The notes under the pieces were generated by a model. The model had not been told where the DNA came from, did no database searches, and was given only the letters and a program-made list of their open reading frames with translations. DNA of 64,000 bases, taken from positions 46,208-110,207 of the IMG/VR virus record IMGVR_UViG_3300027887_000007; one strand, given 5' to 3'. Of this stretch, positions 35,464 to 64,000 are shown piece by piece (within the stretch, counting starts at the first letter, position 1; every line of letters begins with the position of its first letter). Made by a program: the position numbers and the translations under genes. The stretch is from a virus.

Positions 35464-35699
35464 CAGACAGGCACCCCCAGCTCCGTGAGGATCGCCTCGA
35501 TTCCGCCGACCTCCTTCAGGAGCTCAGCCCGCCTGTCCTGAAGCTCTTTGGGGTTGACCTTCTGCCGCTCCGGCATCTGGAGTTCTTCCCCGCTCTCCGG
35601 GTCGAATCGCTTGAAGACCAGCTCGTAGCCCTCCGGTCCGAACTGAATCTTCGCAAGTCCCTTCTCACGCACTCGGTTGAACCGTTTGATGTCGATCAT
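35463..35699 (-). CDS. Hypothetical protein
   Basis: 78 aa; KRFDPESGEE plus coiled coil; RBS GGAG. Confidence 0.65.
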   Translation of the reverse strand: MIDIKRFNRVREKGLAKIQFGPEGYELVFKRFDPESGEELQMPERQKVNPKELQDRRAELLKEVGGIEAILTELGVPV

Positions 35700-40536: not shown

Positions 40537-40548
40537 TGCCCACCCCCG

Positions 40549-40992: not shown

Positions 40993-41000
40993 TTCTCCCC

Positions 41001-41297
41001 CTAGACAGCGAACGTGTTGACCGCGTTGGTGACGGCAGTGATGATCTGTCCGTCGGTACAACCAGTCGGATTGGCGAGTACGTTCGCATCGGCGATGACG
41101 GCCCACATGATCTTGTCCGTTGCGGATTCCGTATTGATCAGAGCATCCTTCGCCCATGTGAGCCGGGCAGCGTGATTTGCGGTCCCCGGATCCTCCGCGA
41201 GGATGTCGATCGAACACTTCGCTACCGCCGCGATCGTCCGACTCCGAAGCGTCTGGTTGGTGACTTTCGTGTTGTAGGCCTCAAGCAGCGTTGCCAT
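41001..41297 (-). CDS. Small helical fibre-associated protein
   Basis: 98 aa; EDPGTANHAARLTWA...TDGQIITAV. Confidence 0.65.
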   Translation of the reverse strand: MATLLEAYNTKVTNQTLRSRTIAAVAKCSIDILAEDPGTANHAARLTWAKDALINTESATDKIMWAVIADANVLANPTGCTDGQIITAVTNAVNTFAV

Positions 41298-41964
41298 TTT
41301 GTTTCTCCTCTAGCGCCTCATCTCTGAGGGCGTCTTTGTAAGTGTAGTCGTATGACCCGACGTGGATCATGAGCTTAGACAGATCGTGATCCACGTAGAG
41401 CTTGAAACCGGAGTCCATGGCTCGTTGAGAAAAGTAGTAGTCCTGATAGACGTACCGCCGATTCTGCTCGCTGTACCCCATGAGGAACCACGGGTGAGCC
41501 ATCTTCTCGTACACCTCCCGGGCCACCAGCGTTAACCCCTGCGGGAGCAACTTGACCTCCTCAAGCCCGGTTGACGTCTCCTTCGTGATAATCCTTTTGT
41601 CCTTCCCGGCCGCGGTGAACCTCTGACGCTTTCCTTTGTTGGTCGAGTAGTTCGCCCCAACGATCGGAAGCCGATGCCGGGCGAGACGGTGTATGGCGTC
41701 TGGAGGGAACCCCATGTCATCCTCGACGCTGCAAAAGTGCGTCCACCTCACCTGCTTGTCCTCCAAGTACTTTTCGACCAGGCGCTCGTAGTTCTCCGCA
41801 ATCCCGCTTCCTTCTGTCCCGTCGGGGACGAAGTACTGGGTGTCGCAATCCTCAAACACCCTAACGTGCGAGAAGTACATCGCCATTCTGGCGAGGCACA
41901 TCGCATACTTCAGCCGGCACAGACCAGTCGACGGCGTCAAAACGGCAACGGCGAAATCTCCCAT
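41281..41964 (-). CDS. GT-A fold (GT2-like) glycosyltransferase
   Basis: THFCSVEDDMGFP, IVGANY, GLTLVAREVYE..PWF, QDYYF...GFKLYVDHDLS..HVG; similar to 23479-24120. Confidence 0.75.
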   Translation of the reverse strand: MGDFAVAVLTPSTGLCRLKYAMCLARMAMYFSHVRVFEDCDTQYFVPDGTEGSGIAENYERLVEKYLEDKQVRWTHFCSVEDDMGFPPDAIHRLARHRLPIVGANYSTNKGKRQRFTAAGKDKRIITKETSTGLEEVKLLPQGLTLVAREVYEKMAHPWFLMGYSEQNRRYVYQDYYFSQRAMDSGFKLYVDHDLSKLMIHVGSYDYTYKDALRDEALEEKQNGNAA

Positions 41965-41972
41965 ATTCCACC

Positions 41973-42995
41973 TCAAAGCTGAGCGATCGAAGCGAGGAAC
42001 CGTTCTTTGTCTCCCGTAGACTCGAACTCCTCGGATAGACGCTTCAGCTCGAGTATCTTACCGTTCAACTCCTTGATAGCGTTAGTGAGAAGAAAGACCA
42101 GTGGCGCTACGTCGAACAGGATGATCTCGGTCTCCTCGCCCTCTTCGATAAGCTTGCCGGTGACCTTCCGGATGGTGTACGGAGCTAGAGCCTCGATCTC
42201 CTGACCGACGATCCCAACTTGGAGTACGTCGTCGTTCTTGGTCTCCCACAGGCCGTTCCACTTGAACGTGATCGGGTTGATCTTCCTCAGAACCTCTAGG
42301 CCGTCCTTGAATGCGCGGATGTCGCGCTTGAGTCGAATATCGGACGATGCCCCCGAGTATCCCGATCGGCCCGAATAGCCAGAAACTCCTGAAAATCCGC
42401 TTCGGCCCGAATAGCCAGAATAGCCTGAAGTCCCGCAGTACCCCGAAACTCCCGAATAGCCCGAGTAGCCTGAGCTGGAGTATCCCGAGATGCCAGAGTA
42501 TCCCGAGTAGCCTGAGCTGGAGTAACCCGACACCCCGCTGTACCCAGAAAAGCCTGACGTCCCGCAATAGCCGCTGACGCCTGAGAATCCGCTGTAGCCC
42601 GAGCTGGAGTAGCCACTTGTCCCCGAGAAACCAGATCCGCCACTACCGCCCGAGTACCCACTTTCGCCCGAGAAGCCGCTGACCCCGCTAAACCCCGAAA
42701 CCGCCGAGTACCCCGAGATCCCCGAATAACCCGAAGTTCCAGAAAATCCAGAAGTGGCCGCACCTGAGATCCCAGAGTACCCCGAGTATCCTGACGGACC
42801 AGAGTAGCCACTGTCGGTCGAACCCGGTCCGCTATAGCCTGATGGGCCACTGTAGCCGGAATCGCCCCCGCCGCCAGAGTAGCCCGAAATCCCTGAGTAG
42901 CCAGATGTCGACGAGTAGCCCGAATAGCCTGAAACCCCGGAGTACCCGGAGATCCCAGAATAACCACTCATCGACGCAATCTTGTCCCAGCCCAT
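41973..42995 (-). CDS. SGYSG collagen-like fibre protein with a C-terminal S74-like chaperone
   Basis: About 205 aa of (Gly-X-Ser)n followed by SSDIRLKRDI...GIVGQEIE. Confidence 0.85.
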   Translation of the reverse strand: MGWDKIASMSGYSGISGYSGVSGYSGYSSTSGYSGISGYSGGGGDSGYSGPSGYSGPGSTDSGYSGPSGYSGYSGISGAATSGFSGTSGYSGISGYSAVSGFSGVSGFSGESGYSGGSGGSGFSGTSGYSSSGYSGFSGVSGYCGTSGFSGYSGVSGYSSSGYSGYSGISGYSSSGYSGYSGVSGYCGTSGYSGYSGRSGFSGVSGYSGRSGYSGASSDIRLKRDIRAFKDGLEVLRKINPITFKWNGLWETKNDDVLQVGIVGQEIEALAPYTIRKVTGKLIEEGEETEIILFDVAPLVFLLTNAIKELNGKILELKRLSEEFESTGDKERFLASIAQL

Positions 42996-42996
42996 A

Positions 42997-43473
42997 TCAA
43001 CTCAGAAGGTAGACGTCACAGGTGTCAGTGTCTAGGTACAGGTCTCCAGCGACGGCGCCTGGGATCGACCCCGGAGCTCCAGATCCGGTGAACCACTGCG
43101 TTCCCCGAGCGCCCGAGTAGGCGCTGATCCCAGAGTACCCACTGTAGCCCGAGGTCCCCGGACTGGAGTAACCAGAAATCCCACTGTAGCCCGAGGGCGA
43201 GGAGTAGCCTGAGATTCCCGAATAGCCCGACGTCCCAGAGTATCCCGACGATGACGAGTACCCAGAAATCCCTGAGAATCCAGACAGGCTAGAGTATCCC
43301 GAAATCCCCGAATACCCAGAAGGCGACGAATAGCCACTAATTCCCGAGTAGCCCGAACTGGACGAGTATCCGCTGATCCCCGAATAGCCCGATACGCCGG
43401 AGTAGCCGGAGTAACCCGATCGGCCCGAGTAGCCTGAGTATCCGCTGATGTTGCTCTGCTTTGTCCAGCTCAT
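42997..43473 (-). CDS. SGYSG collagen-like fibre protein (short)
   Basis: MSWTKQSNI-(SGx)n-RGTQWFTGSGAP...GDLYLDTDTCDVYLLS. Confidence 0.85.
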   Translation of the reverse strand: MSWTKQSNISGYSGYSGRSGYSGYSGVSGYSGISGYSSSSGYSGISGYSSPSGYSGISGYSSLSGFSGISGYSSSSGYSGTSGYSGISGYSSPSGYSGISGYSSPGTSGYSGYSGISAYSGARGTQWFTGSGAPGSIPGAVAGDLYLDTDTCDVYLLS

Positions 43474-46145
43474 GCGTACTGGCCTCCGGTCGCTGACGTT
43501 CCAGACGAGTCTCCTGGGAAGTAGTTAGCGCCGCCGCCGTTTGTGTTGATCACGCCGTTCAGGGTTACTTGGTACCGGGAACCGGTTGCTGACCCGCTGT
43601 AGGTTGATGATGTGTCCTGAACCACTCCGGCCAAAGATGCGTATGCAAAGGCCGTAAACGCTGGAGTCCCAGTAATCGTCACTGTGTGGGCGGAAGTCTT
43701 GTTCACCCTGCCCTGGCTTGTTGCTACATGGGAGGTCGCACCGCCGCTGATTGCGTAGCTTCCTACGCAAGAGATTATCCCGTTGAATCCAGCATCGAGG
43801 TGGTAGACGGAGCAAGCGCCGAAATCGATGTTCTGGAACTTTATTGATGCAGCTTGAGCCCTTAAACCACCAAGCCCACCAGAGTTCGTGATCTTGAGAT
43901 CCTTGATGAACACAGGATTTACGGTTGGGCAACCAACAACCGCTATGTTGTACGCAGCCGTTGTGTTGATCACGACGTTTGCTGGCGTTGAGGCGTTCCC
44001 CTGAACCGTTAGAGTGGCAGTTCCAAGCCCATGAAGCAGGCCGATCTGCATCCCAGCCGTGTAGGTTCCATCTCCGATTTGTACTGTGACGTTATACCCG
44101 GCGATGTCCAGCTGCATGATCGAGTCAGCAGCCTTCTGCAGAGTGAGGAACGCACCACCGGCCGAGTCTGTCAGCCCATCGTTGCTGTCGTTCCCATCGG
44201 CGCGGACGTAGTAGGTCCGGTCTGCCGTTAGCCTAGTCCTGACGTTCAGCGGGTTGCTCGCCCCGGCCCCCTGCTGGTAAACGTCTCCAGTGTTGAGATC
44301 GAGGTAGAGGTCCCCTGTGGCCTCGCCACTAATCGTGCCTGGCGCTCCATCCCCCGTGTACCAGAATGACCCCCGGACTCCGGATCCTCCCGAGTAGGCG
44401 CTGATCCCAGAATATCCAGATGGGCCGCTGTAGCCAGATGGGCCCGAGTAGCCTGAAAATCCCGAAACTCCCGAATACCCCGAAATCCCCGAGTAGCCCG
44501 ATCGCCCGGAATACCCCGAGTAGCCTGAGTCGGAACTGTAGCCGGAAATGCCCGAGTAGCCAGATCGTCCCGAATAGCCCGAGTAGCCCGAATCTGAGCT
44601 GTAGCCAGATCTTCCCGAGTAGCCAGAATATCCCGAGTCAGAACTGTAGCCGGAGATTCCCGAGTACCCCGACCGGCCAGAATAGCCCGAGTAGCCGCTG
44701 TCGGAAGAGTACCCAGAAATCCCGCTGTAGCCGGAAATTCCCGAGTAAGCCGAAATCCCTGAGTAGCCTGATCGCCCAGAATAGCCCGAGTAGCCTGAAT
44801 CTGAACTGTAGCCCGAAATCCCTGAGTAGCCCGACGTGCCAGAATATCCGGAGGGCGACGAATAGCCGGAGATCCCAGAGTACCCAGAATCAGACGAGTA
44901 GCCTGAGATGCCGCTGAACCCGGAAATCCCAGAAAATCCTGAGTAGCCCGACCGGCCCGAATACCCACTGTAGCCCGAGGCTCCTTTGGCTCCCTGCATG
45001 GCGAACACAAGCATGTCCGCCTTGTTTAGGCCCGGAGTGGCCGCTCCGGACGCCCTGCGGAATCTCAGCTTGACCGTGTAGGTCCCTGCCGGGAGCTCGG
45101 CAGTCCTGTGGGTGATCGCCCCGATTCCGTAGTCGTTCGTTCCGGAGAGGTACCGCTGGTACTCGTCGTAGTCTACCCCGTCGATCTGTATTGCGATCCC
45201 GATGGTAGATGGAGCGCCGCCGCTCTGCGTCCCGATCTCGAAACTTGCCAGCGCGGCAATCTCGACCGCCTCTTCGGTCGTGATTGTCGTCGACATCCCG
45301 CTGACGTCCTCTAGCGTAGCGGACGTAGTGCCAACGGGACTGTCCAGCTCGACGTAAGAACTCGGGAGTTTTCCAGCAACGGCATCCGCGCCGGGAAGCC
45401 CTGAGTAGCCCGAGATCCCAGAGTAGGCGCTAATGCCTGAAAACCCCGAAACGGACGAGTAACCCGAGAGTCCCGAGTAACCCGAGTATCCACTGTCTCC
45501 CGGCCCCGAAAACCCTGAGTACCCAGACTGCCCAGCTCCCGAGTATCCAGAGTACCCTGAAAACCCGGATCCGCCCCCGGGGTCTCCCTTTTCTCCGGAG
45601 TAACCAGAGTATCCCGACGTTCCGGGGCTGGAGTACCCAGAGAATCCAGACTCCCCGCCGGCCGGGCCGGAAAAGCCACTGTAACCGGATGTGCCGGGGC
45701 TGGAGAAACCAGAAGTTCCGCTGTATCCGGAGTAACCCGATGTGCCGGGGCTTGAGTAGCCAGAGAATCCCGAGACCGAGATTCCCGAGTACCCTGAGAT
45801 GCCCGAGTCTCCGCTATAGCCAGAAGTGCCGGGGCTTGAGTACCCAGAAGGGCCGCTGTAACCCGATGGGCCTGAGTATCCGGAGGTCGATTCTCCCGAG
45901 TACCCGGATGGGCCGGAGTAGCCAGAGGTCGAGACCCCCGAGTATCCGGAGTAACCAGAAATGCCGTAACCGGAGTACCCGGAGGTCCCGAAAGTGTACG
46001 GAAGGGCGTTCCAGTTCTGAATGCCGTCGCCGAGCTTGATCTTGCCAGTGTCAAGCTCAACACCAACTTCGCCTTCAGCCAGAAGTGGATTCGCTGCGGT
46101 CCACTCTGCTGCGAGGCCGCGGCGAAGCTGGATGTGGACAGCCAT
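43470..46145 (-). CDS. SGYSG collagen-like fibre protein with an Mtd_N-like N-terminus and a C-terminal beta-helix-like domain
   Basis: IQLRRG.AAEWTAANPLLAEGEVGVELDTGKIKLGDG..WNALPY; two SGx tracts; RTYYVRADGNDSNDGL...AFLTLQKA...IGDGTY. Confidence 0.85.
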   Translation of the reverse strand: MAVHIQLRRGLAAEWTAANPLLAEGEVGVELDTGKIKLGDGIQNWNALPYTFGTSGYSGYGISGYSGYSGVSTSGYSGPSGYSGESTSGYSGPSGYSGPSGYSSPGTSGYSGDSGISGYSGISVSGFSGYSSPGTSGYSGYSGTSGFSSPGTSGYSGFSGPAGGESGFSGYSSPGTSGYSGYSGEKGDPGGGSGFSGYSGYSGAGQSGYSGFSGPGDSGYSGYSGLSGYSSVSGFSGISAYSGISGYSGLPGADAVAGKLPSSYVELDSPVGTTSATLEDVSGMSTTITTEEAVEIAALASFEIGTQSGGAPSTIGIAIQIDGVDYDEYQRYLSGTNDYGIGAITHRTAELPAGTYTVKLRFRRASGAATPGLNKADMLVFAMQGAKGASGYSGYSGRSGYSGFSGISGFSGISGYSSDSGYSGISGYSSPSGYSGTSGYSGISGYSSDSGYSGYSGRSGYSGISAYSGISGYSGISGYSSDSGYSGYSGRSGYSGISGYSSDSGYSGYSGRSGYSSDSGYSGYSGRSGYSGISGYSSDSGYSGYSGRSGYSGISGYSGVSGFSGYSGPSGYSGPSGYSGISAYSGGSGVRGSFWYTGDGAPGTISGEATGDLYLDLNTGDVYQQGAGASNPLNVRTRLTADRTYYVRADGNDSNDGLTDSAGGAFLTLQKAADSIMQLDIAGYNVTVQIGDGTYTAGMQIGLLHGLGTATLTVQGNASTPANVVINTTAAYNIAVVGCPTVNPVFIKDLKITNSGGLGGLRAQAASIKFQNIDFGACSVYHLDAGFNGIISCVGSYAISGGATSHVATSQGRVNKTSAHTVTITGTPAFTAFAYASLAGVVQDTSSTYSGSATGSRYQVTLNGVINTNGGGANYFPGDSSGTSATGGQYA

Positions 46146-46279
46146 TACACGCCCCCACCATCAATCGGGTCGATTCCGCCGTAGACGGAGGTTGGAGTAC
46201 CGCCGTCGACGTCTCCAAAGTTCTCAGACGTCCCCTCGCCGCCGCCGCCACCGATGATGATGCAGCTCTCTATCTCCAT
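46145..46279 (-). CDS. Small DGG-motif protein (44 aa, not in the ORF track)
   Basis: MEIESCIIIGGGGGEGTSENFGDVDGGTPTSVYGGIDPIDGGGV*; TAATG overlap with the fibre gene. Confidence 0.6.
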   Translation of the reverse strand: MEIESCIIIGGGGGEGTSENFGDVDGGTPTSVYGGIDPIDGGGV

Positions 46280-46281
46280 CG

Positions 46282-46686
46282 TCAGAGCGCCTGTCCGTGC
46301 GGCCCGACTAGGCCACCGGGACTATCGGGTTTGACCATTGGAGGAATCAGGTCAATCGGCTTTGCGACTTCGATTTCCCGATAGCACCGGTTACACTTGA
46401 ATGAAACCTGTCCGTCCGTCGTTGCCCCCTTTACGTCGTACATCGACCGCTTGTTGCGGGCTCCGCAGCCGGGACACTCAAAGACGACGTAGTCGGTCCC
46501 GGGTACGCGCTGGTTACTCCGGAGGTACCGCTTGATCGACTTTTTCAGCCTCAATCCTAGCTTTACGGCTTCCTTTGCGAGCTCGCCATCCGGATCAGGA
46601 AGTGGCTCTCGAACGGTCTTTGTCTTATGTCCTCCACCCTTGTTCACTACCTTGACGGCGGTAGTTCTCAGAATAACTCCCGGCAT
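46282..46686 (-). CDS. Zinc-ribbon protein
   Basis: FECPGCG...FKCNRC; likely start MPGVIL at 46686. Confidence 0.65.
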   Translation of the reverse strand: MPGVILRTTAVKVVNKGGGHKTKTVREPLPDPDGELAKEAVKLGLRLKKSIKRYLRSNQRVPGTDYVVFECPGCGARNKRSMYDVKGATTDGQVSFKCNRCYREIEVAKPIDLIPPMVKPDSPGGLVGPHGQAL

Positions 46687-46694
46687 GTTTCCCC

Positions 46695-48584
46695 CTATTG
46701 GATTTGACCTGTTTGCGTTGCAGATGGGCCAGTGGCATTGCTGATTTTCTCCATGGCACCCGGCAACATTCCTCCACCGCCGGCAGCTCCCGCCTGCTTC
46801 TGCCGGATGGCTTGGATGAGGATGTTGGCACCCTCTTCCTCGAGGTTTTTCTTGATCGAGTCGTACAGGCCTCCCAGATCGAGAGACTCCAGCATGTTCT
46901 TCATATCCATGTCGCCCATTCGCCGCAGGTTGAGCATGAGCGCTTGCTGCGGCATTCGGGCCGACTTGAGCAGGGATCCGGGGACCATCATGAACGTAAA
47001 CGCCTTCCAATGCTCCTCGGCAGGCGTCCCGTACGGGACCATCGTCCCGGGGTCCCAGTCGAAGTCCTCCCACGTCAATCCCTCGGACCCTAGAAGCTGC
47101 ATCCTCCGTTTCAGCGTGTAGAACTGGAAGGCGTTGGGGACCCACTGCTGGCCCATCTGTTTCATGAAGTCTTCGATGTACCGTACCTTGAGCCTGACAA
47201 GGGTCTGTTGCCCCTCCTTCAGTTGCTCCAGAGTGTCTCCTGCCGGGACGATACCCCTGCGAGAGATGCTCCCCATGTCCAGAAAACCGCTCTGGCTGTC
47301 TAGTTCCTGCTGGGCGTACAGCATCGTCTGGAAGACGAAGCTGGGCAGGACAGGCGCCGGCCCCCACGTCGGAGCCTGAATCGAAGCCGGGGAGTAGAAA
47401 ATCTTCGCATTCGGCATGTTCGGGTCGAGATTCTTCTTCACCGAAGCGCCGAAGGCGTTGTCCGGAGCAAGGAGTTGCGGGTTGACCGCCTTCTTGACCG
47501 CGTCAAGGATCCCTGCGAGGACGTTGTTCATGACATCCTGCAGCGGGATCTGGTTGCGGAACTCGGACAGTCCCGGGAACTGCCACGGGACCCGGTTCAA
47601 CCGGAGGCACTGGAACGGGAACTGACCGTGGTAGTGCGGATTTGGACCGTCGTAAAGGACAACCGGGCCGCCGAGGATCATTAGCCGGCCGCGAGGATAA
47701 AGCTTCTGGCCAGGCTGGACGGCGTATCCGTACTCCCTCTGCTGATCCCCGACCCAAACTGTTGCGTTTGACGTATTTCTCTGGCTGTCCCTGATCCAGA
47801 ACTCCCGGTAGAGAGCCATCGGTATTGCGGAGTCTCGGGCTTGGCTTGTGGTTTGGCCAAACACTCGGCGCATCTGGGGGGATAGCACCTGCCAAGCCCG
47901 TCCCCACATCCCCGTGCCGGCCTGAGACGGGCCACCAAGGTACTGCGAATACTCCTTGTCGACAGGGACTTTGTAGCCTTTGAGGGGGTACTTCTCCTTG
48001 AACCATGAGATCGGCTTGGGGGCGCGGTAGATGACTCCAAGAGACCGCTGTAGCGTATGGGACGGCCTGATCGGAATCAGGTCCATCGCGCCAAGGGCTG
48101 TCAGCTCCATCTCGCCTTCGCCGTTCTTCAGGTCTGGATTCCAGATCAAACGGCCGTAACCGATCGTGAGAGCCGCGTGGACGATGATCATGGCAAGGGT
48201 CATGTCGATGTCCTCGTTCATGAACCAAGCCCGGACCATCTTGTTGAGGACCTTCGCGTGTTCGTCGTACAGCTTGTTGTTCGCTTTGATCTCGAACGAA
48301 GGCCGGATGTCCGTGAGGTAGGAAATCAGCTGAACTAGGTTAGTCCACAGCCGGTTGGCGACCGGTGCGGCCTTGTAGCTAGGCCGGCGCTCGACCCACT
48401 GCTTCCCCATCAGGTAGTTGATGGCGCGGTCGATCTGGACTACGTCGTCGTTCCGCTCGAGGTCGTCCTTCGCCTCTTCAAAGACGGCCTCACACCACCG
48501 GCTGACCAAGAGATCGTGTGCAGTCTCGTCTAGCGGCCATTGGGTAGCGCTCGGGTCGTACGAGTACCAACCGGGTAAATCCAT
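46695..48584 (-). CDS. Portal protein
   Basis: 629 aa after the terminase; YLMGKQW, RPSFE, LYDGPNP..HGQFPF, PLQDVMN; Q/G-rich tail. Confidence 0.85.
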   Translation of the reverse strand: MDLPGWYSYDPSATQWPLDETAHDLLVSRWCEAVFEEAKDDLERNDDVVQIDRAINYLMGKQWVERRPSYKAAPVANRLWTNLVQLISYLTDIRPSFEIKANNKLYDEHAKVLNKMVRAWFMNEDIDMTLAMIIVHAALTIGYGRLIWNPDLKNGEGEMELTALGAMDLIPIRPSHTLQRSLGVIYRAPKPISWFKEKYPLKGYKVPVDKEYSQYLGGPSQAGTGMWGRAWQVLSPQMRRVFGQTTSQARDSAIPMALYREFWIRDSQRNTSNATVWVGDQQREYGYAVQPGQKLYPRGRLMILGGPVVLYDGPNPHYHGQFPFQCLRLNRVPWQFPGLSEFRNQIPLQDVMNNVLAGILDAVKKAVNPQLLAPDNAFGASVKKNLDPNMPNAKIFYSPASIQAPTWGPAPVLPSFVFQTMLYAQQELDSQSGFLDMGSISRRGIVPAGDTLEQLKEGQQTLVRLKVRYIEDFMKQMGQQWVPNAFQFYTLKRRMQLLGSEGLTWEDFDWDPGTMVPYGTPAEEHWKAFTFMMVPGSLLKSARMPQQALMLNLRRMGDMDMKNMLESLDLGGLYDSIKKNLEEEGANILIQAIRQKQAGAAGGGGMLPGAMEKISNATGPSATQTGQIQ

Positions 48585-48599
48585 GGACCCCTCCGATGC

Positions 48600-48920
48600 T
48601 CAGTCTACTAGGGTTGTGTCAATCCCCGGCTGGGGGGCTCTTTTCTTGGGCGGGGCATCCTTGGGATCCGGGCAGTGAACCACTCCGTACTCGTTGCAGT
48701 ACCGGGAAAGGTCCTTCTGGCGCCCGACGTGGATTTCTCTGCCATCCGGGTCAAGGTTTCTGGTGTTGAAGGCGGCGAAAACCTTGGGGGAGTACCGGCT
48801 GAAGAGACGCTCTCCGGGTCCCCCGCACTTTGGGCAGGTACCGCTGCAATCGGTAACGTGGGGTGAGTACCACTCCCAGATGTGGTCGCACTCGAAGCAC
48901 TGGTCCTCGTAGACTGGCAT
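48600..48920 (-). CDS. FmdB-like zinc-ribbon protein
   Basis: MPVYEDQCFECDH...CPKCGG..ERLFS; RBS GGAGG. Confidence 0.75.
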   Translation of the reverse strand: MPVYEDQCFECDHIWEWYSPHVTDCSGTCPKCGGPGERLFSRYSPKVFAAFNTRNLDPDGREIHVGRQKDLSRYCNEYGVVHCPDPKDAPPKKRAPQPGIDTTLVD

Positions 48921-48930
48921 GATCGCCTCC

Positions 48931-49494
48931 TCAGTAGAACCAGAGGTTGTCGAGACCGTCCTCAACCCGGGAGTTCATGTAGCGCTCAAGCGACATTTGC
49001 CCTGACTTGGCTACGTCTTCGAGCGGCTGGACGTGCCTCTCTGGGATCATCAGGGTAATCGGAACATCTCCACCGATCTTCCTGATCTGGCCAGACAGGA
49101 CTCTGGCCTCTGCCCTCTCGACCCTCTCACGCATGTCCTTCATTTGCTCGTTCATGGCAAAAACGGCTCCGAACAGCGACGAGGAGTCGGTGAATTTTCC
49201 GAGGACGCTCTCGAGGCGAAGGCGGTCGACCTCCTCAATCCTCATTCTCGTATCAGGAGGCGCCGAGGCTTCCTCTTTCGGCGGCTCCGGAACTGGCGGC
49301 GGGGCCGCGGCTCTTCTCGTCCTACCCATCTCGAGCAATGCCGCGGCGAGGACATCGCGGTCCTCCCACTGGTGACCGGCGGTGCAAAAGTGGCTAAACT
49401 TAGCTCCCGGCCTGTAAATTAGGTCGTTTTCGACTCCACCCTTGTAACACTCCGGACACAACTCTCTAGGCTTTGGTTTGTTGGCGACGGCCAT
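48931..49494 (-). CDS. Hypothetical protein with an N-terminal Zn motif
   Basis: CPEC...C..GH; coiled coil; RHH-like C-terminus. Confidence 0.65.
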   Translation of the reverse strand: MAVANKPKPRELCPECYKGGVENDLIYRPGAKFSHFCTAGHQWEDRDVLAAALLEMGRTRRAAAPPPVPEPPKEEASAPPDTRMRIEEVDRLRLESVLGKFTDSSSLFGAVFAMNEQMKDMRERVERAEARVLSGQIRKIGGDVPITLMIPERHVQPLEDVAKSGQMSLERYMNSRVEDGLDNLWFY

Positions 49495-49502
49495 CTCCGC
49501 TC

Positions 49503-51398
49503 CTATAGCATGTAAAAGTCAGGAATTCCCGTCCGATCCTGAGCAATGTTGTCCTTGTCGTAAAGCAATGAGTAATCCGTGTTTTGGAAGTCCTGATTGG
49601 CTGGAATCTTCTCTTCTTCTAACTTGGAGTCCATTCTTGGACGCAACTGGGTGGCGCAGTAGTAGGTGATCATGGCCGACATGATCCCGTCATCGTGCTG
49701 GCCGGCTCTGGCCTCGTACCTCTCGGTCCCCTCCTCTACTTCCACGAAGTCGAACATCTCGTCGATGTCTGCCTCGGCCCGGATGATGACGGTCCACTCG
49801 TCGAGTGCCTGACGGAACCGGCCGATGAGCTCGTTGCGGTTCCTGAAGTTTGTCTGCCATCCGATGAAGTTCGAGTAGGCGTTCCGGGCTTTGTCCTCCC
49901 GCATCCATCGGTACCACTTAGGGTAAAGCAGGACCTTGCAGAGATCCGACACAACGGTCGTGATCGTATTGCATTCCGGGCTGATCTCCGCGGTGTTGTA
50001 CATGTAGCCAAGCGCAGCGAGAACACGGGCGAACTGGCCGGGACCGATCCATCCGTGCCAGCGGGCGACTTGCCGAATGGGCTGATTGATGTCCTCCGGC
50101 ACCGCAAAGACCTGGGCGCAGGCCGGATCGCCACCCTCGACACCCATCGACGGATCGGCCCCGATGTAGTAGTTCATGTTCGCCTTCGGCAGTTCCCAGA
50201 TGCTTAGGCGACCATCCTGAAGCTTGCTGAGCTTGAAGCTGCGGTTATCCTTGTCGTCAAGACGGACCTCTCCGACCCACATGGGCGGCCGGCAGAAATG
50301 GGTGAGCATCTCCTGTAACCGCCGCTTTGAGAACGCGCATCTGCCTGAGGCGATGAAAGCTTCTGCGGGGCTGACCGGAAACTCTTGGCGAAACTTCTCG
50401 GGGTCTCCGTCGGTCGACTCAAACTCGGCCATCTTCTTCCGACGCCACGCCAACTGGGAATCGGTGAGGCCAAACCCGGCGGTCTTCTTTACCTTGTCGA
50501 GCAGAGCTATCTCTTCCGGCGTATGCTCGAAGCGCTCGGGAACGGTAATAGAGTATCCGGGCTCACGGAACCACTCGATGAACACAAAGTCCCAAGGAAG
50601 CTTTCCGGATTCTGCGGCCTTGCAGATCCGGTGCCACGTTCCGCCTCGACCTCTGGCGGTAGACTCCATGATGCCGATAGACCCGGGCAGCTCGACCAGT
50701 GAGCCGAAAATTCCCTCGGTAATGGCATTGGAGTTCCGGTATCTGGCAACCTCGGCCAAGTGGGCTCCGAAAAGCGACTTGGAATAAGCCGCGCCGGAGG
50801 GCTGATTCGCTGACTCAAAGTAGATCTGGGACTGGATTCCGGAGCTCCTTCGGCGATCTTCCTCTCTTGCTCTATCGAATCCAAGCAATCTGCCCCTTGC
50901 GTCATACCTCTTCTCAGGACGCATCCACCAAGGCAAGTACTCATGCGCCGTTCTGGCCATGTTGAAGTTAACATCGGTTCTCTCCTCCTCGTCCGACATC
51001 GTCAGAACGTGCGAGTTCGGGTGGAAGAAGACCAACCAGCACATCAGAGCTACCGAGATTGTCGTCAACCCAAGTTGGCGGGCCTTCAACACGACGATTC
51101 TGATGATGTTGTCTATCGACTGCTGCCGCTCGAAGCTGGCCAGAAAGACTTCCTGACTATCCCAAAACGGCCACAGGGGGACGAGACCAAGCTTTTTGGT
51201 GCGGATGAAATGGTAGTTTTCTAGGTAGTATCGGGGGGACTGGAGGCACTTGGCTATCTCGCCCTCAATGAACTGAATCTCGGTGTCACTGAGCGAGGCA
51301 AGCGCCTTAGCCTGATCGAAATTGGCTTCGAGCAGTCTGGCGTCTAGAGCTTCGAGGGCTTCGTCTAGCTCTTGTTGCTTCCGTCGGAGCAGTTCCAA
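49503..51398 (-). CDS. terL: Terminase large subunit
   Basis: LKARQLGLTT (Walker A), HLAEVA (Walker B), IMESTARG (motif C), FRQEFP..EAF, IGADPSMG and HDD nuclease motifs. Confidence 0.92.
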   Translation of the reverse strand: MELLRRKQQELDEALEALDARLLEANFDQAKALASLSDTEIQFIEGEIAKCLQSPRYYLENYHFIRTKKLGLVPLWPFWDSQEVFLASFERQQSIDNIIRIVVLKARQLGLTTISVALMCWLVFFHPNSHVLTMSDEEERTDVNFNMARTAHEYLPWWMRPEKRYDARGRLLGFDRAREEDRRRSSGIQSQIYFESANQPSGAAYSKSLFGAHLAEVARYRNSNAITEGIFGSLVELPGSIGIMESTARGRGGTWHRICKAAESGKLPWDFVFIEWFREPGYSITVPERFEHTPEEIALLDKVKKTAGFGLTDSQLAWRRKKMAEFESTDGDPEKFRQEFPVSPAEAFIASGRCAFSKRRLQEMLTHFCRPPMWVGEVRLDDKDNRSFKLSKLQDGRLSIWELPKANMNYYIGADPSMGVEGGDPACAQVFAVPEDINQPIRQVARWHGWIGPGQFARVLAALGYMYNTAEISPECNTITTVVSDLCKVLLYPKWYRWMREDKARNAYSNFIGWQTNFRNRNELIGRFRQALDEWTVIIRAEADIDEMFDFVEVEEGTERYEARAGQHDDGIMSAMITYYCATQLRPRMDSKLEEEKIPANQDFQNTDYSLLYDKDNIAQDRTGIPDFYML

Positions 51399-51416
51399 CG
51401 GCTAGGCCGTTTCTAC

Positions 51417-51773
51417 CTACCCTTTGTCTGTTACGGCTTGGCTCATGAACGCCTTGATTTCCTCTGCGGTCATTCCCTGAGCCTCGGCTAGCTTGATCTG
51501 CTCTTGGATGAACATCTCTTCGTCGGTGTTCCCGACGAATTCTCCCTCGGTCGGCTTCATGCGAGCGGCGATAAACTCCCGAAGTTGACCGCCAAGCACA
51601 TTTTCAGTCGACTTTGCCTCTTGCAGCTGTCTCGGCGTAGCCTTGAACTCCCGTAGCAAGGCGGCGTCGACAGAGAGGGCCATCAGTAGGAATCGGTACG
51701 CGACGTAGATGACGGCAGAGAGGGCGGCAAGAAAGAATGCCGCGGCCACAAGCAGGATCGCTAGCTCAATCAT
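51417..51773 (-). CDS. Membrane protein
   Basis: N-terminal hydrophobic helix MIELAILLVAAAFFLAALSAVIYVAY. Confidence 0.6.
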   Translation of the reverse strand: MIELAILLVAAAFFLAALSAVIYVAYRFLLMALSVDAALLREFKATPRQLQEAKSTENVLGGQLREFIAARMKPTEGEFVGNTDEEMFIQEQIKLAEAQGMTAEEIKAFMSQAVTDKG

Positions 51774-52053
51774 CGAGTATGCTTTCACGCTTGGGATTAT
51801 ACTTCTTCGCCTCTGGCAGCCCAAAGGCAAAGTCCCCCTCGCGCTTTTCCTGAACGAGGTTGACGCCGACCAAGTACCCGGCATCGTCGTACTCGCACGT
51901 CACGTACCCGTTGTCGCAAAGAGCCTCCGACCCGGGAAACTGGGCGTGGAACGCGGTCCGACGCCTAGTTGTGGCCGGGTTCAAGTCGATGTGGAAGGCC
52001 TCAGCCTCTAGGATGAGAGGCTCTTTGTCGTCCCGAGTGATGCAGATTTTCAT
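51766..52053 (-). CDS. Hypothetical protein
   Basis: 95 aa, coupled overlaps with neighbours. Confidence 0.6.
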   Translation of the reverse strand: MKICITRDDKEPLILEAEAFHIDLNPATTRRRTAFHAQFPGSEALCDNGYVTCEYDDAGYLVGVNLVQEKREGDFAFGLPEAKKYNPKRESILDD

Positions 52054-52499
52054 AGGTTGTCCCCGTACTTCCGCTCAGGCTCGCCGACGGTCATCCACGC
52101 CCCGCTCTTCAGCCGGCGGACCCTCGGGCTCCCAGACTTGGAGTCCTTGTAGAGGATCCCGTAGAGTGTCTGAATCGGCCGGGTTCCCTTGACCGGCTCC
52201 CCCTGCTTCTCAAGGGCAGCGAGGATGTCGTTGGTCTTCATCGGTCCACGCGAGATGAGCATCGCCATCACCTTGTCGGCGATACTGGCCGGCTTCTTGG
52301 ATCCGACGCCTTTCAAGACCCTCGGCTTGGACCACCTGATCGTCGCCGACATGTCCTCCGCCATCGGCAAGGCATTGCCAGCTCCGTTACTCGACAGAAA
52401 CGATTCCAGCCCCCGAATAGCAAGGTCGATCCTGCCACGTTCCTCCATCAGGATCTTTCTGGACTGCTCAATGCACGTTCTGATATCGCTGAGGTTCAT
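52050..52499 (-). CDS. Winged-helix DNA-binding protein
   Basis: N-terminal coiled coil; GPMKTNDILAALEKQG...TLYGIL...RRLKSGAW. Confidence 0.6.
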   Translation of the reverse strand: MNLSDIRTCIEQSRKILMEERGRIDLAIRGLESFLSSNGAGNALPMAEDMSATIRWSKPRVLKGVGSKKPASIADKVMAMLISRGPMKTNDILAALEKQGEPVKGTRPIQTLYGILYKDSKSGSPRVRRLKSGAWMTVGEPERKYGDNL

Positions 52500-58056: not shown

Positions 58057-58275
58057 CTACCACCTTCTTTCTTTTGCGATGAGTGCCTTTGCTTCGCTGT
58101 GCCAATACTTGAAGAACGTCATCGGCCGCGTCAGGTCTCCGTCTAGGAACTCGCACATTTCGTGTACCAGCTCCCTGTAGAGCGGCCCGAGGAAGTAAGC
58201 CGCCAGAGCCAACCGCCGGCTCCAGTACCACGCCTTCAGACGGCCGATCTTCACCGCTATCCACGTTCGCATCAT
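58057..58275 (-). CDS. Hypothetical protein
   Basis: 72 aa, coupled. Confidence 0.5.
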   Translation of the reverse strand: MMRTWIAVKIGRLKAWYWSRRLALAAYFLGPLYRELVHEMCEFLDGDLTRPMTFFKYWHSEAKALIAKERRW

Positions 58276-58551
58276 TTTTTAACCGCCTTGCGATCTTCCT
58301 GATACACCGCATAAGCTCTGCCCGGATGTCCTCGTCCCCGTCTAGGCAATACCACGCCTGCTCGCACAGAGCCGCCGCCATCCTCCGGTCGTACGTTTCC
58401 GCCTTCTTCCTTCGGCTCTTTGGTGAAATCAAGTTCTTTTATCAGGCTCCCGCGGTGCGGGTGCATCTGGATGGCGATTAGAGTAGCCCTATAGAGCCTC
58501 CCGAAATACTCTATGGTGTGATCCAGCGATACGAGAATTCTTCCATCATTG

Positions 58552-58854
58552 TCACCGGGCATCAGGTTTCCACGGGCGCTGGTAATGGTAGTGCTTGCCA
58601 CACGTCCTGCGGTAGTGTTCGCCGTCTGGGAACCCGCACGTCGCCGGCTCCCTGCAGCCCGGCTCGTCGCACCCCATCTCAGGGACAGGATGAGGATCGT
58701 CCCACCCAAGTACGTCGAAGGCCTGCTCGAGGGCAGACAGCCCGCCCGTTGTGATCTTGGGCCCGGAGACCATGTATCCGAACTGGATAGCCATCGCCTC
58801 GATGGCCTCTTTGGCCGCTTCAGAATCGAATCCGCACTTCTGACATTTGGGCAT
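58552..58854 (-). CDS. Cys-rich hypothetical protein
   Basis: MPKCQKC...TGGLSALEQAFDVLGWDDP...CDEPGC...TCGKH. Confidence 0.6.
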   Translation of the reverse strand: MPKCQKCGFDSEAAKEAIEAMAIQFGYMVSGPKITTGGLSALEQAFDVLGWDDPHPVPEMGCDEPGCREPATCGFPDGEHYRRTCGKHYHYQRPWKPDAR

Positions 58855-59007
58855 AGTTTTGTCGGTGGCGGCAGGATCATCCCCCCGGACTACTGCCGCC
58901 GACCGCCCGGCCGGCCAGTCGCAAAAAGGGTCGGCCAAGATTGATGGGGCGGTTTTGAGTCCAATCCGCTTACCCACCGGGACTAAGTGGTGGCGCCCCA
59001 CATTACT

Positions 59008-59283
59008 CTACAGGTACTTGTCGAGCGCAGCGGCGACGGCTGCCATGATGCCTTGCCGCGGATGCTCGGCGTACCACATCTCGATGAGTTGCTCGTCGGT
59101 TGCCGGAACTCCGGTCGCTTCGACTGATTCGAGGTTCTTGTCCTGCGAGAAATCGAGGTATGCCTGAACGACCATGAGCGGTGTGGCGGTCTGATTCGCC
59201 ACATCCTCGGTCCTCCAGTACATGCCCGTCGCCGAGTTCCGCTTGTTCAGGTAGGTGTTCACATACTCCGGATAGGTCAACAT
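59008..59283 (-). CDS. Hypothetical protein
   Basis: 91 aa, strong RBS AGGAGG. Confidence 0.65.
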   Translation of the reverse strand: MLTYPEYVNTYLNKRNSATGMYWRTEDVANQTATPLMVVQAYLDFSQDKNLESVEATGVPATDEQLIEMWYAEHPRQGIMAAVAAALDKYL

Positions 59284-59294
59284 CTCTTCCTCCT

Positions 59295-59581
59295 AAGTGG
59301 CATGGCCGATGATGGCACCGGATTGGGTCACTGTCGCCCCTTGTGCCATTAGGGGCTAACTACCAATCCGCATCGGCCACAACTTATGCCGTCCGTGCTG
59401 CCAGCCCCGTCGCTGCGGGTCAGTACCACACCCCTTTCGGCAGCTTCCCAAGCCCACCCCGGCTCACTCCAGCTACGGTTTCCCGCCAAAGGAGAAGCTC
59501 TCCGGGGACGGACGGCTTCCGCGCCGCCGTGCGGGTAAGCGACCTCCAAGAGCCTACGCACACCCGCTAACCCAGCCACTT
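59295..59581 (-). ncRNA. Candidate ~290-nt structured non-coding RNA
   Basis: Closing stem, multiple nested helices, a GAAA tetraloop and a 7-bp pseudoknot (see findings). Confidence 0.5.
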
Positions 59582-59615
59582 GACGGGGAGACGAGAAGAC
59601 CCGGCAAGACGGCGG

Positions 59616-59927
59616 CTATTTCGGATCCATCTCCGTGAACCTTCCGTTCACGAACGTCACCAGCATCGCAGTGTCCAGAAACACCGGGTTCCCCTGCGGG
59701 AAGAAGCGCATGAAGTACTGCTCCACAGCCCCTCTCGGCAGAGTCTTGAGCTTCTCCAGCCGCGCATCCGGCGGCATCCGCTCGATATCCTCGAACATCG
59801 GATAGTTGCCGGTGAACCGGTTCTCGTATTGCCTCAGGAGCCGCTCCAGTACGAGGGCAACGTCCTGCGGCGGCAGCCCGGTAGCGTCGATCGCGTTTTT
59901 GATGATGTCGTGGAGTATCTGGCTCAT
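59616..59927 (-). CDS. Hypothetical protein
   Basis: MSQILHDII... behind GAGGGA. Confidence 0.6.
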   Translation of the reverse strand: MSQILHDIIKNAIDATGLPPQDVALVLERLLRQYENRFTGNYPMFEDIERMPPDARLEKLKTLPRGAVEQYFMRFFPQGNPVFLDTAMLVTFVNGRFTEMDPK

Positions 59928-60056
59928 GATCCCTCTGGTATGGCCCGCCCGCGGCGTCGACCGCGGCCCTGCTCCCTCCGGGGAAACACGTAACCCGTGG
60001 CGTCCGTCGTCTTTAGGACGGGAGACAGACACCGACAGGGGCAACTTGCACGGGCC

Positions 60057-60266
60057 TCAATGCGGTCCGAAATCGGACTGTCCCTGAACCTTGTACCAGA
60101 CGATTCGGTTGGCCGTCACGCTGAGGGCCACTCCGCTGTCAAATCCCATGAACAGTGTCCCATCGTCCCGCAGAATAGCAATCTCGCACATCTTACCGAC
60201 CAGATGATTGAGCCTCGCCAAGTTTTCCTCGCTGGAAAGCTCCTTGGTCTCATCCGTGCCGGCCAT
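60057..60266 (-). CDS. Hypothetical protein (probably a leaderless transcript)
   Basis: 69 aa; ATG 6 nt after a -10 box. Confidence 0.55.
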   Translation of the reverse strand: MAGTDETKELSSEENLARLNHLVGKMCEIAILRDDGTLFMGFDSGVALSVTANRIVWYKVQGQSDFGPH

Positions 60267-60484: not shown

Positions 60485-60888
60485 GGGTTTTCCCGGGTGA
60501 TGTCGGTCCGCAGGATGAGAGCGATCTGCCCCATCATCTGCTCGAGCTTGGCGCAGCGGTACTGCAGCTCGGTCGGGGATCCCTTCCTCGAGGCAGCGAG
60601 CTCCTCGGCCAGCCGCTCGATGTATTCGTGTTTCTTGACGAGCTCAGCTTTCATGATCTCCCGGTCGGCTTCCATCTTCTCCCGCTGCGCCTTCAGCAGG
60701 ATGATCTCCTCGTCCCGATCGTGAAGCGTCATCGTCAGCTTGTCCAACCCCGTCGCCGCTTCCCTAACCGTCGCCCGGAGACCCTTCACCGTCTCTCCGT
60801 AGTCCCTCAGCTCCGACAGGTACCCCTTCTCCCGCTCTCTGAGCCTCTCGAGCTCTTCTCCTAGCTTCGTATTCTGCCAATCGTTCAT
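60481..60888 (-). CDS. Coiled-coil protein
   Basis: MNDWQN...; heptad-rich. Confidence 0.6.
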   Translation of the reverse strand: MNDWQNTKLGEELERLREREKGYLSELRDYGETVKGLRATVREAATGLDKLTMTLHDRDEEIILLKAQREKMEADREIMKAELVKKHEYIERLAEELAASRKGSPTELQYRCAKLEQMMGQIALILRTDITRENP

Positions 60889-61342
60889 GGTGCGTCTCCA
60901 CAAGGACTTCCCATCTGTCGTATTTCCCCAGCGTCTTTTCCTTAACCGCCAGAAGCTTGAATGCCGCCTCTCTCTCCTCGCGGTTGATTTTCCTGATCAG
61001 ACCCCTCAGTTTATCCGTGGGGATGAACTCGAGCCTCATGTACCCCGGAGGATTAATGCCGGCCCGCCTGTAGCGGCTGAGGCACCGCTTCGGCAAGCCA
61101 AAGATCAACCGGAAATTGCCCACACCGGGAATGTTGAGCTCGCTTCGATCGCCTCTGCGGAGGCCCTCGACCCACGCCCGCATCCAGACCTGAAGTCCAG
61201 TGGCGACTGCGTCGATGCACTGAGCGGCCTGGTCCTCGGTTATTCCGGTCAGATCGGCAATGTGAACCGCGAACCCCCGCTTGGCGAGCCTCCCCTGAAG
61301 GATATATTTGCGGACAATCCTATTCCTCCTCTTCGGTTCCAT
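60764..61342 (-). CDS. HU/IHF-like DNA-binding protein (divergent)
   Basis: FAVHIADLTGITEDQAAQCIDAV...ELNIPGVGNFRL...RLEFIPTDKLRGLI matches the HU fold pattern. Confidence 0.65.
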   Translation of the reverse strand: MEPKRRNRIVRKYILQGRLAKRGFAVHIADLTGITEDQAAQCIDAVATGLQVWMRAWVEGLRRGDRSELNIPGVGNFRLIFGLPKRCLSRYRRAGINPPGYMRLEFIPTDKLRGLIRKINREEREAAFKLLAVKEKTLGKYDRWEVLVETHHERLAEYEARRRAREAQRAGEGVPVGAEGLRRDGEGSPGDG

Positions 61343-61725
61343 CAGGGCTCCCAGAGGTCGTTGTCGATCAGGTTTTGAACGCGGGCCTTTCTCTTCTCGT
61401 AGAACGCCTTGTGCCGATCGCACGGCACATTAGCCGTGCATCCGCACTCGCGCCAGTCCTCGAGGAAGCTCAGGGCCCGACCCAGAAGCGTGTTGAGGTC
61501 TTCGATGTCTTTGGCGTTGAGCTTCTCCTCGAGATGGGGAGGAAGCCGAAACTGCGGCGTCTGCACCATAACGAGCTCGGGTTCGTTCCGGACCCCCATC
61601 AAGTAGAAGAAGTAACCCTTCTTCGTCCAGTAGAACCCGAACCGGCCGCTGAGATGGATCCACCCGGGCTTGCGCCGGAGTTCCATTTCCTTCTCTTCTG
61701 GAGTCAGGATCACTGGATCACCCAC
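61342..61725 (-). CDS. Hypothetical protein
   Basis: 127 aa, coupled. Confidence 0.55.
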   Translation of the reverse strand: MGDPVILTPEEKEMELRRKPGWIHLSGRFGFYWTKKGYFFYLMGVRNEPELVMVQTPQFRLPPHLEEKLNAKDIEDLNTLLGRALSFLEDWRECGCTANVPCDRHKAFYEKRKARVQNLIDNDLWEP

Positions 61726-62892: not shown

Positions 62893-63638
62893 TGATTCCT
62901 CCCCATCCACTCGTCGAGCCGTTGCTTGAGAGCGAAGATTTCGTCCAGCGCAGCTTCGTACTTGAGCTCGTAGTAACCCTTGTGACGGACCGGATGCTGC
63001 CCGCTGACCGGCCTCCCAAGATCGCTCAGAAGAGCATCCCGCTCCGCGACAACCCGTCTGAGCTGCCTTTCCTTCTCGCACAGATGACAGGTACAGTCCG
63101 ACCCAAGCGACAGCCACCTGCAGGCCGGCCAAGCCCGCTTCTCATACTCCTTGATCTTCACGCCGAATTCGTGCTTCGCCGCAACCCAGTCCTGCTCGTA
63201 TTGGTCCGCCTTCTTCCGGAGCCGCTCGTTCTGCAGATGCGACCAGCACACCTCACACCAACCGTTCGGCCGCCCGTAACTGTCCGTGGTCTGCTCGTTC
63301 TCCTCAGCCGGCAACCCCACGAAATGCAGACAATCACCCCGACCGGGCCCGGCCATCAGGCACCCCCGCTCGCACCGGAGCCGCTCAACCTCACACTCGA
63401 CACATTCAGCTGTAGAGCCCTTCTCCTTGTTGTACTGCGGGACAGCCTGATGCTTGATGCAGCGGATAAACAAAACATCGTCGGCGGAAGGCTTGGACCG
63501 CAACCGCACGACTTCGTCTTTGAGCCACTCTACGTCGCCCGCCGTGATCGCCTCCCAGTCGACGCACTCACAGCACGAATGGAACTCCTTGTACTTGATG
63601 TCTTCAAATGGGTCTCTCATGGTGTCCCCTTCAACCAC
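62889..63638 (-). CDS. Cys-rich coiled-coil hypothetical protein
   Basis: 249 aa with several CxxC motifs and EVERLR repeats. Confidence 0.55.
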   Translation of the reverse strand: MVEGDTMRDPFEDIKYKEFHSCCECVDWEAITAGDVEWLKDEVVRLRSKPSADDVLFIRCIKHQAVPQYNKEKGSTAECVECEVERLRCERGCLMAGPGRGDCLHFVGLPAEENEQTTDSYGRPNGWCEVCWSHLQNERLRKKADQYEQDWVAAKHEFGVKIKEYEKRAWPACRWLSLGSDCTCHLCEKERQLRRVVAERDALLSDLGRPVSGQHPVRHKGYYELKYEAALDEIFALKQRLDEWMGRNQ

Positions 63639-63904
63639 TTCCTTACCGATGGTTGGTCGTCACACGAATTCTCCAGCAGTTCCCGCGCCTCCTCGATCCG
63701 CTTGGTCAGGTCTGCAATGTCTTGGTTGTCCTTCTTCACAGCCTCATCCAAACAGCGGATGTACTCCTTCCGGCTGAAAGCCTCCCGCTTGGCGGCGGCG
63801 AGTTCGGCGCGGAGCCGCTCAACCTCCCGCTGCGGACCAACCCCATGCTGAGGACAATAGTGATCGGTTACCCGCGTCTCTTCCATCCCGTACTTGGCAA
63901 TCAT
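63617..63904 (-). CDS. Coiled-coil hypothetical protein
   Basis: 95 aa; EVERLRAEL. Confidence 0.5.
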   Translation of the reverse strand: MIAKYGMEETRVTDHYCPQHGVGPQREVERLRAELAAAKREAFSRKEYIRCLDEAVKKDNQDIADLTKRIEEARELLENSCDDQPSVRKWLKGTP

Positions 63905-64000
63905 GCAGGTGCAGCAATTATCAAATCGGTTGCGGAGCCGCCCAACCTCAACCTCAACTTTGAGCTTGTCGATCTGAATCGACTTTTCGAGGCACTCGCC

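Follow-up and report, generated by a model that had tools for sequence, protein, structure and literature searches.

An 83-nt non-coding hairpin lies between two orphan genes in the early region of an uncultured phage. It is a new, unclassified conserved hairpin/pseudoknot candidate: the stem is stable, the apical loop is exactly complementary over 7 nt to a bulge lower down the same hairpin, and all 83 bases recur, beside different genes, in one other phage. Chance accounts for these facts less well than a discrete functional module does, and the hairpin is probably a functional signal between early genes. The reading we favour, held tentatively, is that the element may be a cis-acting, pseudoknotted RNA signal in an early polycistronic message and also a boundary of shuffled gene cassettes.

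The window analysed here is the right-hand 64 kb (bases 46208-110207) of the record IMGVR_UViG_3300027887_000007, a genome of 110,207 bp rated 100% complete; coordinates are those of the window unless the record or another piece is named. The source phage is uncultured and podovirus-like, and carries an SU10/P22-type portal, collagen-like fibres, a glycosylation/radical-SAM cluster and a C5 methylase. Its nearest cultured phages are those of Tunturiibacter, a genus of the Acidobacteriota, and portal identity to them is only ~25%. A scan for tRNA and tmRNA genes found none. A giant minus-strand frame of ~5,950 aa occupies window 2-5971 and continues over record 34320-52178 (pieces L082 14320-19998 and L083 2-12178); its product is a ‘polyvalent’ protein with a Strawberry-notch-type helicase (AAA_34, Helicase_C_4), a methyltransferase, a GHKL ATPase and an LPD38 domain. 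The genome has a GC content of 58-60% and stable hairpins are common in it. The strongest GC-corrected local structure genome-wide lies outside the window, at record 30461-30587 (L082 10461-10587): a perfect 15-bp hairpin with an 8-nt loop and a z of about -5 on both strands, which may be a terminator or a DNA site.

Rightward of ~50 kb, all genes of the window lie on the minus strand and are small and closely spaced. Those at 50-57 kb are syntenic with the portal relatives, and the synteny stops near 58 kb, which marks what follows as a hyperplastic region. The early genes between ~58000 and 64000 are orphans without a homologue in the eight phages that share 66-82% portal identity, the exception being the ORF at 60764-61423, with a weak tblastn match to one relative (28% over 130 aa). 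The element lies in this region, in a non-coding gap of 332 nt (59284-59615) between two minus-strand orphan genes. In the order of transcription the features are:

59616-59927, minus strand: upstream orphan gene, 103 aa from its ATG, in an ORF open to 60044
59382-59615, minus strand: non-conserved 5' spacer (z -0.9), with no counterpart in the second phage
59299-59381, minus strand: conserved element of 83 nt, a bulged three-helix hairpin (P1, 11 bp; P2, 8 bp; P3, 6 bp)
59289-59294, minus strand: Shine-Dalgarno AGGAGG of the 91-aa gene, 5 nt past the element, predicted to be mostly paired in the ensemble
59008-59283, minus strand: downstream orphan gene, 91 aa, start codon at 59281-59283
58275-58562, minus strand: 96-aa gene, its core homologous to the 88-aa gene of the second phage

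The flanking proteins have no relatives in IMG/VR. The 91-aa product finds nothing but itself among 5.8e9 proteins and has no Pfam or PHROG match, and the sole relative of the 103-aa product is weak (36% over 45 aa). Further downstream, two long minus-strand ORFs (149 aa and 202 aa) overlap at 58272-59001. Homology to the second phage shows that the real gene there is the 96-aa product of 58275-58562, which matches nothing in Pfam and whose Atlas model, of poor quality (pLDDT 0.41), gave no usable hit. The gap itself had been described as lacking a convincing ORF, and this holds: measured against the codon usage of the phage itself, which gives the called genes positive scores, its 76-aa and 75-aa frames come out at -16.3 and -9.1, and neither frame matches a known family. 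A small ORF running through the element was rejected, as the frames differ between the two phages, an RBS is absent and the codon scores are negative. A group I intron was likewise rejected: Rfam gives no match, and the two neighbouring ORFs, which have a stop and an RBS each, are separate genes. No promoter-like or terminator-like consensus occurs within 58800-60200, and no U-run follows the hairpin on its 3' side.

The anatomy of the element is given below, where an element position is 59382 minus the window coordinate:

59371-59381, minus strand: 5' arm of P1, pairing with 59301-59311 (positions 1-11 with 71-81); nine Watson-Crick pairs and two terminal G.U pairs, mean probability 0.99 for the nine Watson-Crick pairs
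59363-59370, minus strand: 5' arm of P2, pairing with 59319-59326 (positions 12-19 with 56-63); 8 bp, probability 0.97
59357-59362 and 59327-59335, minus strand: internal loop of 6 + 9 nt, to which the minimum free energy (MFE) fold adds four pairs, leaving bulges of 2 and 5 nt
59351-59356, minus strand: 5' arm of P3, pairing with 59336-59341 (positions 26-31 with 41-46); 6 bp, probability 0.99
59342-59350, minus strand: apical loop of 9 nt, whose central 7 nt AUGGCAC (59343-59349, positions 33-39) are complementary to the bulge
59312-59318, minus strand: 7-nt bulge GUGCCAU (positions 64-70) on the 3' strand between P2 and P1, the candidate pseudoknot or kissing partner of the loop

Folded alone, the element reaches an MFE of -39.4 kcal/mol with a z of -3.5, and a single shuffle in 200 does as well; within the ensemble of the full gap, the pairs of P1-P3 keep probabilities of 0.97-0.99. 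The duplex between loop and bulge is worth -9.6 kcal/mol. An exact 7-nt match of this kind has a chance of ~1e-3, there being 15 possible 7-mer pairings among the unpaired segments at 4^-7 each. A structural descriptor requiring at least 6 bp in P1, 6 in P2, 5 in P3 and 6 between loop and bulge was scanned over 807 kb on both strands; it matched only the element, and nothing in three shuffled sets. The loop heptamer is not enriched elsewhere in the window (6 copies, where 6.5 are expected).

The claim of the element rests on its conservation and its loop-bulge match and not on folding energy. As a plain hairpin it ranks 64th in stability among 22,026 genome windows, about 46 bins of 100 nt (about as many loci) are equally stable for their GC content genome-wide, and its antisense strand folds nearly as well (-36.8 against -39.3 kcal/mol). 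The two terminal G.U pairs of P1 exist in the minus-strand RNA only and are mismatches on the opposite strand. The conserved block takes in both of them, which lends modest support to the mRNA-sense RNA as the functional form. In three dimensions, P2 (8 bp) and P3 (6 bp) are similar in length, so that a sharp turn at the internal loop could bring the apical loop to the P1/P2 junction. On this proposed geometry the linker-free strand between P1 and P2 would cross the deep groove of a 7-bp helix, a tight passage comparable to loop 1 of an H-type pseudoknot. Pairing of loop and bulge between two molecules is the alternative to the intramolecular pseudoknot.

The second copy of the element is in IMGVR_UViG_3300027887_000040 (30,467 bp, labelled G015), where the stretch corresponding to 59299-59381 is identical at 83 of 83 positions and identity stops abruptly on both sides. 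This phage was found by a pattern scan of IMG/VR with the loop and bulge words fixed, which returned five chance matches plus the one true match; a scan with P1 fixed and the stems given as purines and pyrimidines returned the second phage only. In the JGI metagenomes, scanned with the loops fixed, the only matches were two contigs of this same phage, Ga0208980_10000876 and Ga0208980_10000214. Ga0208980_10000876 carries the element, identical up to the contig end, and that end overlaps the start of Ga0208980_10000214 by ~130 nt, the only difference being a 2-nt indel that lies 3 nt before the element. Judged by this overlap, the two contigs are neighbouring parts of a single phage, or of two strains, separated where the assembly broke off at the element. 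Because the two known copies are identical, there is no covariation between them.

The element has been sought widely outside these two genomes. In the eight portal relatives (66-82% identity, four of them complete) it is absent by blastn, by covariance model R1 and by the structural descriptor, and tblastn of its neighbours was null, so the element is dispensable for this group of phages. Two exact probes found no copy in 185,579 GTDB genomes, and an attP site or host-derived fragment was rejected on the same lack of a GTDB match. Among cultured phages, blastn gave no match to the region and only chance matches of 19-24 nt to the element. Rfam searches with four stretches of the window (including one of 901 nt and one of 116 nt) and with the second phage returned only noise at the gathering score and at E<=10, for example mir-263, whose 14.5 bits fall below the cutoff of 51.

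Gene order around the element differs in the second phage. A 73-aa zinc-ribbon-like gene is followed, after its stop, by 26-28 nt, the element, 75 nt, an RBS with a 139-aa coiled-coil gene, and then an 88-aa gene. The genes flanking the element are unrelated between the two phages on both sides, the one downstream being unrelated to the 91-aa gene of the window. The 5' spacer has no counterpart: the element starts 26-28 nt past the stop, as against 235 nt in the window, and its distance to the RBS is 75 nt as against 5 nt. The leader of 193 nt in the second phage has a z of -3.6. Between its element and RBS lies another hairpin (L078 1427-1500, minus strand), whose closing stem has 9 bp and is rich in GC. 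The 139-aa protein is weakly similar (31%, E 2e-5) to the product of window 63617-63904, 4.3 kb upstream of the element, and this displacement points to a shuffled gene order. A 17-26-nt motif occurs as three repeats in the window; in minus-strand reading it appears to encode ‘EVERLR’-type heptads of small coiled-coil proteins. The stretches concerned are window 63376-63958 and L080 13357-13524 of the second phage, and the 139-aa gene weakly joins window 63617-63904 in one group, with blastn patches as well.

Going by their proteins, the two phages are distant kin, with few matching genes at 30-56% amino-acid identity. The sole family common to only these two is that of the 96-aa and 88-aa genes, which has two members in 5.8e9 proteins and none beyond the two phages in IMG/VR and the protein database. 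In both phages it lies one to two genes downstream of the element, ~0.8 kb away. Within its conserved core, identity is 56% at the protein level and 51% at the DNA level, with different codons at 19 of 28 conserved residues and a longest exact run of 8 nt. The element is the sole segment of at least 30 nt that the two genomes share; it is single-copy in each, intergenic, and oriented like the genes in both.

Under the reading we favour, the element would act as RNA within a leftward polycistronic early message. There it would fold into a rigid bulged hairpin of 11 + 8 + 6 bp, whose apical loop would pair with the 7-nt bulge at the P1/P2 junction, giving a pseudoknot of the apical-loop/internal-loop type; the fold would be compact, with P3 bent back alongside P2. 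It would most likely serve as a cis recognition signal between gene cassettes: it could be where the message is processed or stabilized, or an operator to which a protein binds, fixing where the downstream cassette begins at its 5' end and how well ribosomes reach it. As the only conserved DNA in a region of swapped genes, the same 83 bases would probably also act as a patch of homology for the exchange of cassettes between co-infecting phages, and recombination at this patch would keep the element uniform while swapping the cassettes on either side.

Three features favour such a cis-acting RNA signal: (i) in both phages the element separates cistrons and is sense-oriented; (ii) the bases flanking it pair with each other and, again in both phages, involve the start of the next Shine-Dalgarno, with a probability of ~0.4 in the window and 0.65-0.88 in the second phage, where the first four Shine-Dalgarno bases form part of a 7-bp helix with the bases immediately before the element; (iii) irregular hairpins of this size, found between early genes of podoviruses, are classic sites of RNA processing and stability, the RNase III sites of T7 among them. 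Cassette shuffling is suggested by the unrelated flanks, the displaced relative of the 139-aa protein and the portal relatives, which lack nearly all of the region past ~58 kb. Exchange of cassettes at the element would account for 100% identity with unrelated genes on both sides, and inter-phage recombination at the patch is proposed because the identity goes beyond structural need. The same total identity, in loops and stems alike, also tells against an RNA reading, since recent exchange fits it at least as well as selection does, and so do the near-equal antisense folding, the modest rank as a hairpin, the variable distance to the RBS and the lack of a promoter or terminator consensus.

The main rival to the RNA reading places the function in the DNA. 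The element would then be a nested palindrome or cruciform, acting as a recombination linker or as a protein-binding site for an origin, partition or packaging, or it would be a small non-autonomous mobile palindrome (MITE-, REP- or IS200/605-end-like) that has recently moved between phages. We regard this as possible, though unlikely. Recent horizontal spread would explain an element at 100% identity when the neighbouring homologous gene is at ~51%, and it agrees with a block bounded by inverted repeats (the arms of P1) with unrelated genes on both sides, a patchy distribution in which the closest relatives have no element, nearly equal folding of both strands, and second-phage contigs that break at the element as they do at repeats or variable sites. 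A mobile palindrome is not, however, expected to occur once per genome and to be missing from cultured phages and, by the two exact probes, from GTDB genomes; neither insertion has a target-site duplication, and there is no adjacent transposase or nuclease gene. Independent insertion would also hardly select a near-syntenic spot beside the same rare gene in both phages. As for a DNA site, the conserved block exceeds the Watson-Crick palindrome by taking in the RNA-only G.U bases, and the off-centre 7-nt complementarity has no obvious use in duplex DNA. A more sceptical account, which we judge improbable, takes the shared segment for a functionless leftover patch of recent recombination between two phages that is a GC-rich palindrome by chance. 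Two independent occurrences are the whole record, identity without variation is uninformative on constraint, and stable hairpins are common at 58-60% GC; yet a random patch is not expected to start and stop at the base of a 25-bp hairpin, nor to be the sole shared segment of at least 30 nt, and the exact loop-bulge match (~1e-3 by chance) has no parallel in the shuffled sets.

Two further accounts keep an RNA and change what it is. A stand-alone, trans-acting small RNA, cut or transcribed from the gap, might self-associate through loop and bulge on the principle of the phi29 prohead RNA, or act as a decoy for a host factor; this we think rather improbable. Loop-bulge complementarity within one molecule is what drives formation of the pRNA ring (PMC2241910, PMC4201828). 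The 7-nt match is highly non-random, and the module is compact and self-contained, its conservation ending at the base of the helix. Against this, Rfam gives no pRNA match, the element has no three-way junction and carries loop and bulge on one coaxial arm, the genome that carries it is that of a 110-kb phage with an SU10/P22-type portal and not phi29-like, no shared promoter or terminator flanks the element, and it is located among early orphan genes, outside the packaging module. The other account is that of the preliminary description, which proposed a single non-coding RNA of ~290 nt (59295-59581) in which a 7-bp stem encloses a multibranch 5' domain and a 3' domain with a pseudoknot, the whole working as a riboswitch or ribozyme. 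We hold this very improbable. Its sequence words, such as a GAAA-looped hairpin, show that the minus strand, in the mRNA sense, was read, and on that strand all ten of its helices exist; the gap is also unusually long and non-coding for so tightly packed a region, and the closing stem (59575-59581 with 59295-59301) does run up to the AGGAGG that precedes the next gene. The architecture as a whole nevertheless fails. The entire gap has a z of only -1.7, and the 83 nt are its supported part; the 5' 234 nt have a z of -0.9, with 30 of 200 shuffles as good, and are not conserved. The closing stem, the 9-bp stem and the GCUGCC/GGCAGC pairing each have a probability of 0.00 in the ensemble, GCGGGU/ACCCGC one of 0.07, and the completed fold lies at -140.5 kcal/mol as against an MFE of -154.0 kcal/mol, i.e. 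13.5 kcal/mol above it. In the 5' spacer the only robust local structure is a stack at 59457-59507 with the GAAA loop (probabilities 0.62-0.99), and a scan of IMG/VR for the most robust part of the spacer gave no match. The second phage holds the 83-nt block alone, and the 5' 234 nt occur nowhere else.

What survives of the preliminary description is thus a part of both its observation and its interpretation. The three-stem 3' domain is structured and its loop matches the bulge exactly over all 7 nt, the pseudoknot itself being a candidate. The novelty it anticipated stands in that Rfam offers no known family, and this applies to the 83-nt hairpin module, not to a ~290-nt RNA. Its ‘kink-turn-like’ internal loop does not hold up, as inspection finds no tandem G.A after a 3-nt bulge on either strand; the likeness to c-di-GMP-II riboswitches falls with the missing k-turn and with the lack of an Rfam match at E<=10. 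By-eye models of many helices in DNA of 60% GC can equal chance, and the part backed by shuffling and conservation is alone worth keeping.

Phage early regions are rich in orphan genes, and very few non-coding signals are known in them outside model phages. Base-for-base identity beside genes diverged to saturation implies exceptional constraint or transfer between phages, and either way a functional or recombinational hotspot. If the element is a signal for RNA processing or translation, it would be a portable, host-independent-looking module of 83 nt; if it associates with itself or cleaves itself, it would represent a new RNA class. There is a small chance, in our estimate, that it is the first representative of a class of phage RNAs not described before: compact, pseudoknotted between loop and bulge, active in their own right (self-cleaving, self-assembling or factor-capturing), constrained at every base and moving as a unit between unrelated early-gene cassettes of soil phages.

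Several known systems share part of this description. Unlike MITE and REP palindromes, the element is single-copy, with no target-site duplication in either phage and no GTDB match by the two exact probes. The c-di-GMP-II riboswitch and the ribozymes built on loop-internal-loop pseudoknots (twister, and the HDV-like ‘theta’ of phages) are compact pseudoknotted folds of 80-100 nt, as the element may be, and some occur between phage genes. The element differs in that it matches no covariance model at E<=10, those of twister, HDV-like, hammerhead, pistol and hatchet ribozymes included, has no k-turn, and departs in strand order from the nested double pseudoknot of HDV.

In the pRNA of the phi29 family, a hairpin loop is complementary to a bulge loop of the same sequence, and this pairing forms the ring (PMC2241910, PMC4201828). 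The element is also a phage non-coding sequence with such a match (7 nt, exact, 59343-59349 with 59312-59318), from which, by analogy, self-association could follow. The pRNA, however, has a three-way junction, with its CE and D loops on different arms and a pairing of 4 nt; the element is unbranched, pairs over 7 nt, does not match the Rfam pRNA model, and differs in genome type and location. The pRNA belongs to phi29-like phages of ~20 kb.

The PeSL cassettes of T4-type phages, in which recombination at the motif has been demonstrated (PMC2839356, PMC4122927), offer a parallel for the surroundings of the element. A conserved intergenic stem-loop motif, a hyperplastic early region of small orphan genes and differing neighbours in related phages are common to both, and are consistent with recombination at the motif. 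PeSLs are multi-copy and combine a sigma-70-like promoter with a terminator hairpin, whereas the element is single-copy and neither consensus was found in it; it is also longer and more elaborate, and has the loop-bulge complementarity.

In the layout of its loops the element resembles apical-loop/internal-loop (ALIL) pseudoknots, in which the apical loop is complementary to an internal or bulge loop of an extended hairpin; the complementarity is 7 nt in this candidate. ALIL frameshift stimulators of the IS3 family were reportedly described by Mazauric et al. in 2008. Such pseudoknots comprise frameshift elements of luteo-, diantho- and umbraviruses as well as the IS3-family stimulators (review PMC5009743). 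In the known ones, a slippery site within overlapping ORFs lies a few nt 5' of the pseudoknot. The element, unlike them, is intergenic, lies 26-235 nt past a stop, and has no slippery heptamer and no overlapping or continuing frame.

The hairpins between the early genes of T7 are a further point of reference; they were reportedly described as RNase III processing sites by Dunn and Studier in 1983. These are irregular hairpins of ~20-25 bp with internal loops, placed in the early polycistronic transcript of a podovirus, where they shape mRNA ends and downstream translation. T7 has several per genome, they are not sequence-identical across distant phages, and we know of no pseudoknot partner for them, in all of which the element is different. 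Like them, it has 25 bp, here in three helices, is intergenic and lies on the gene-sense strand, and by analogy it may be a putative processing site.
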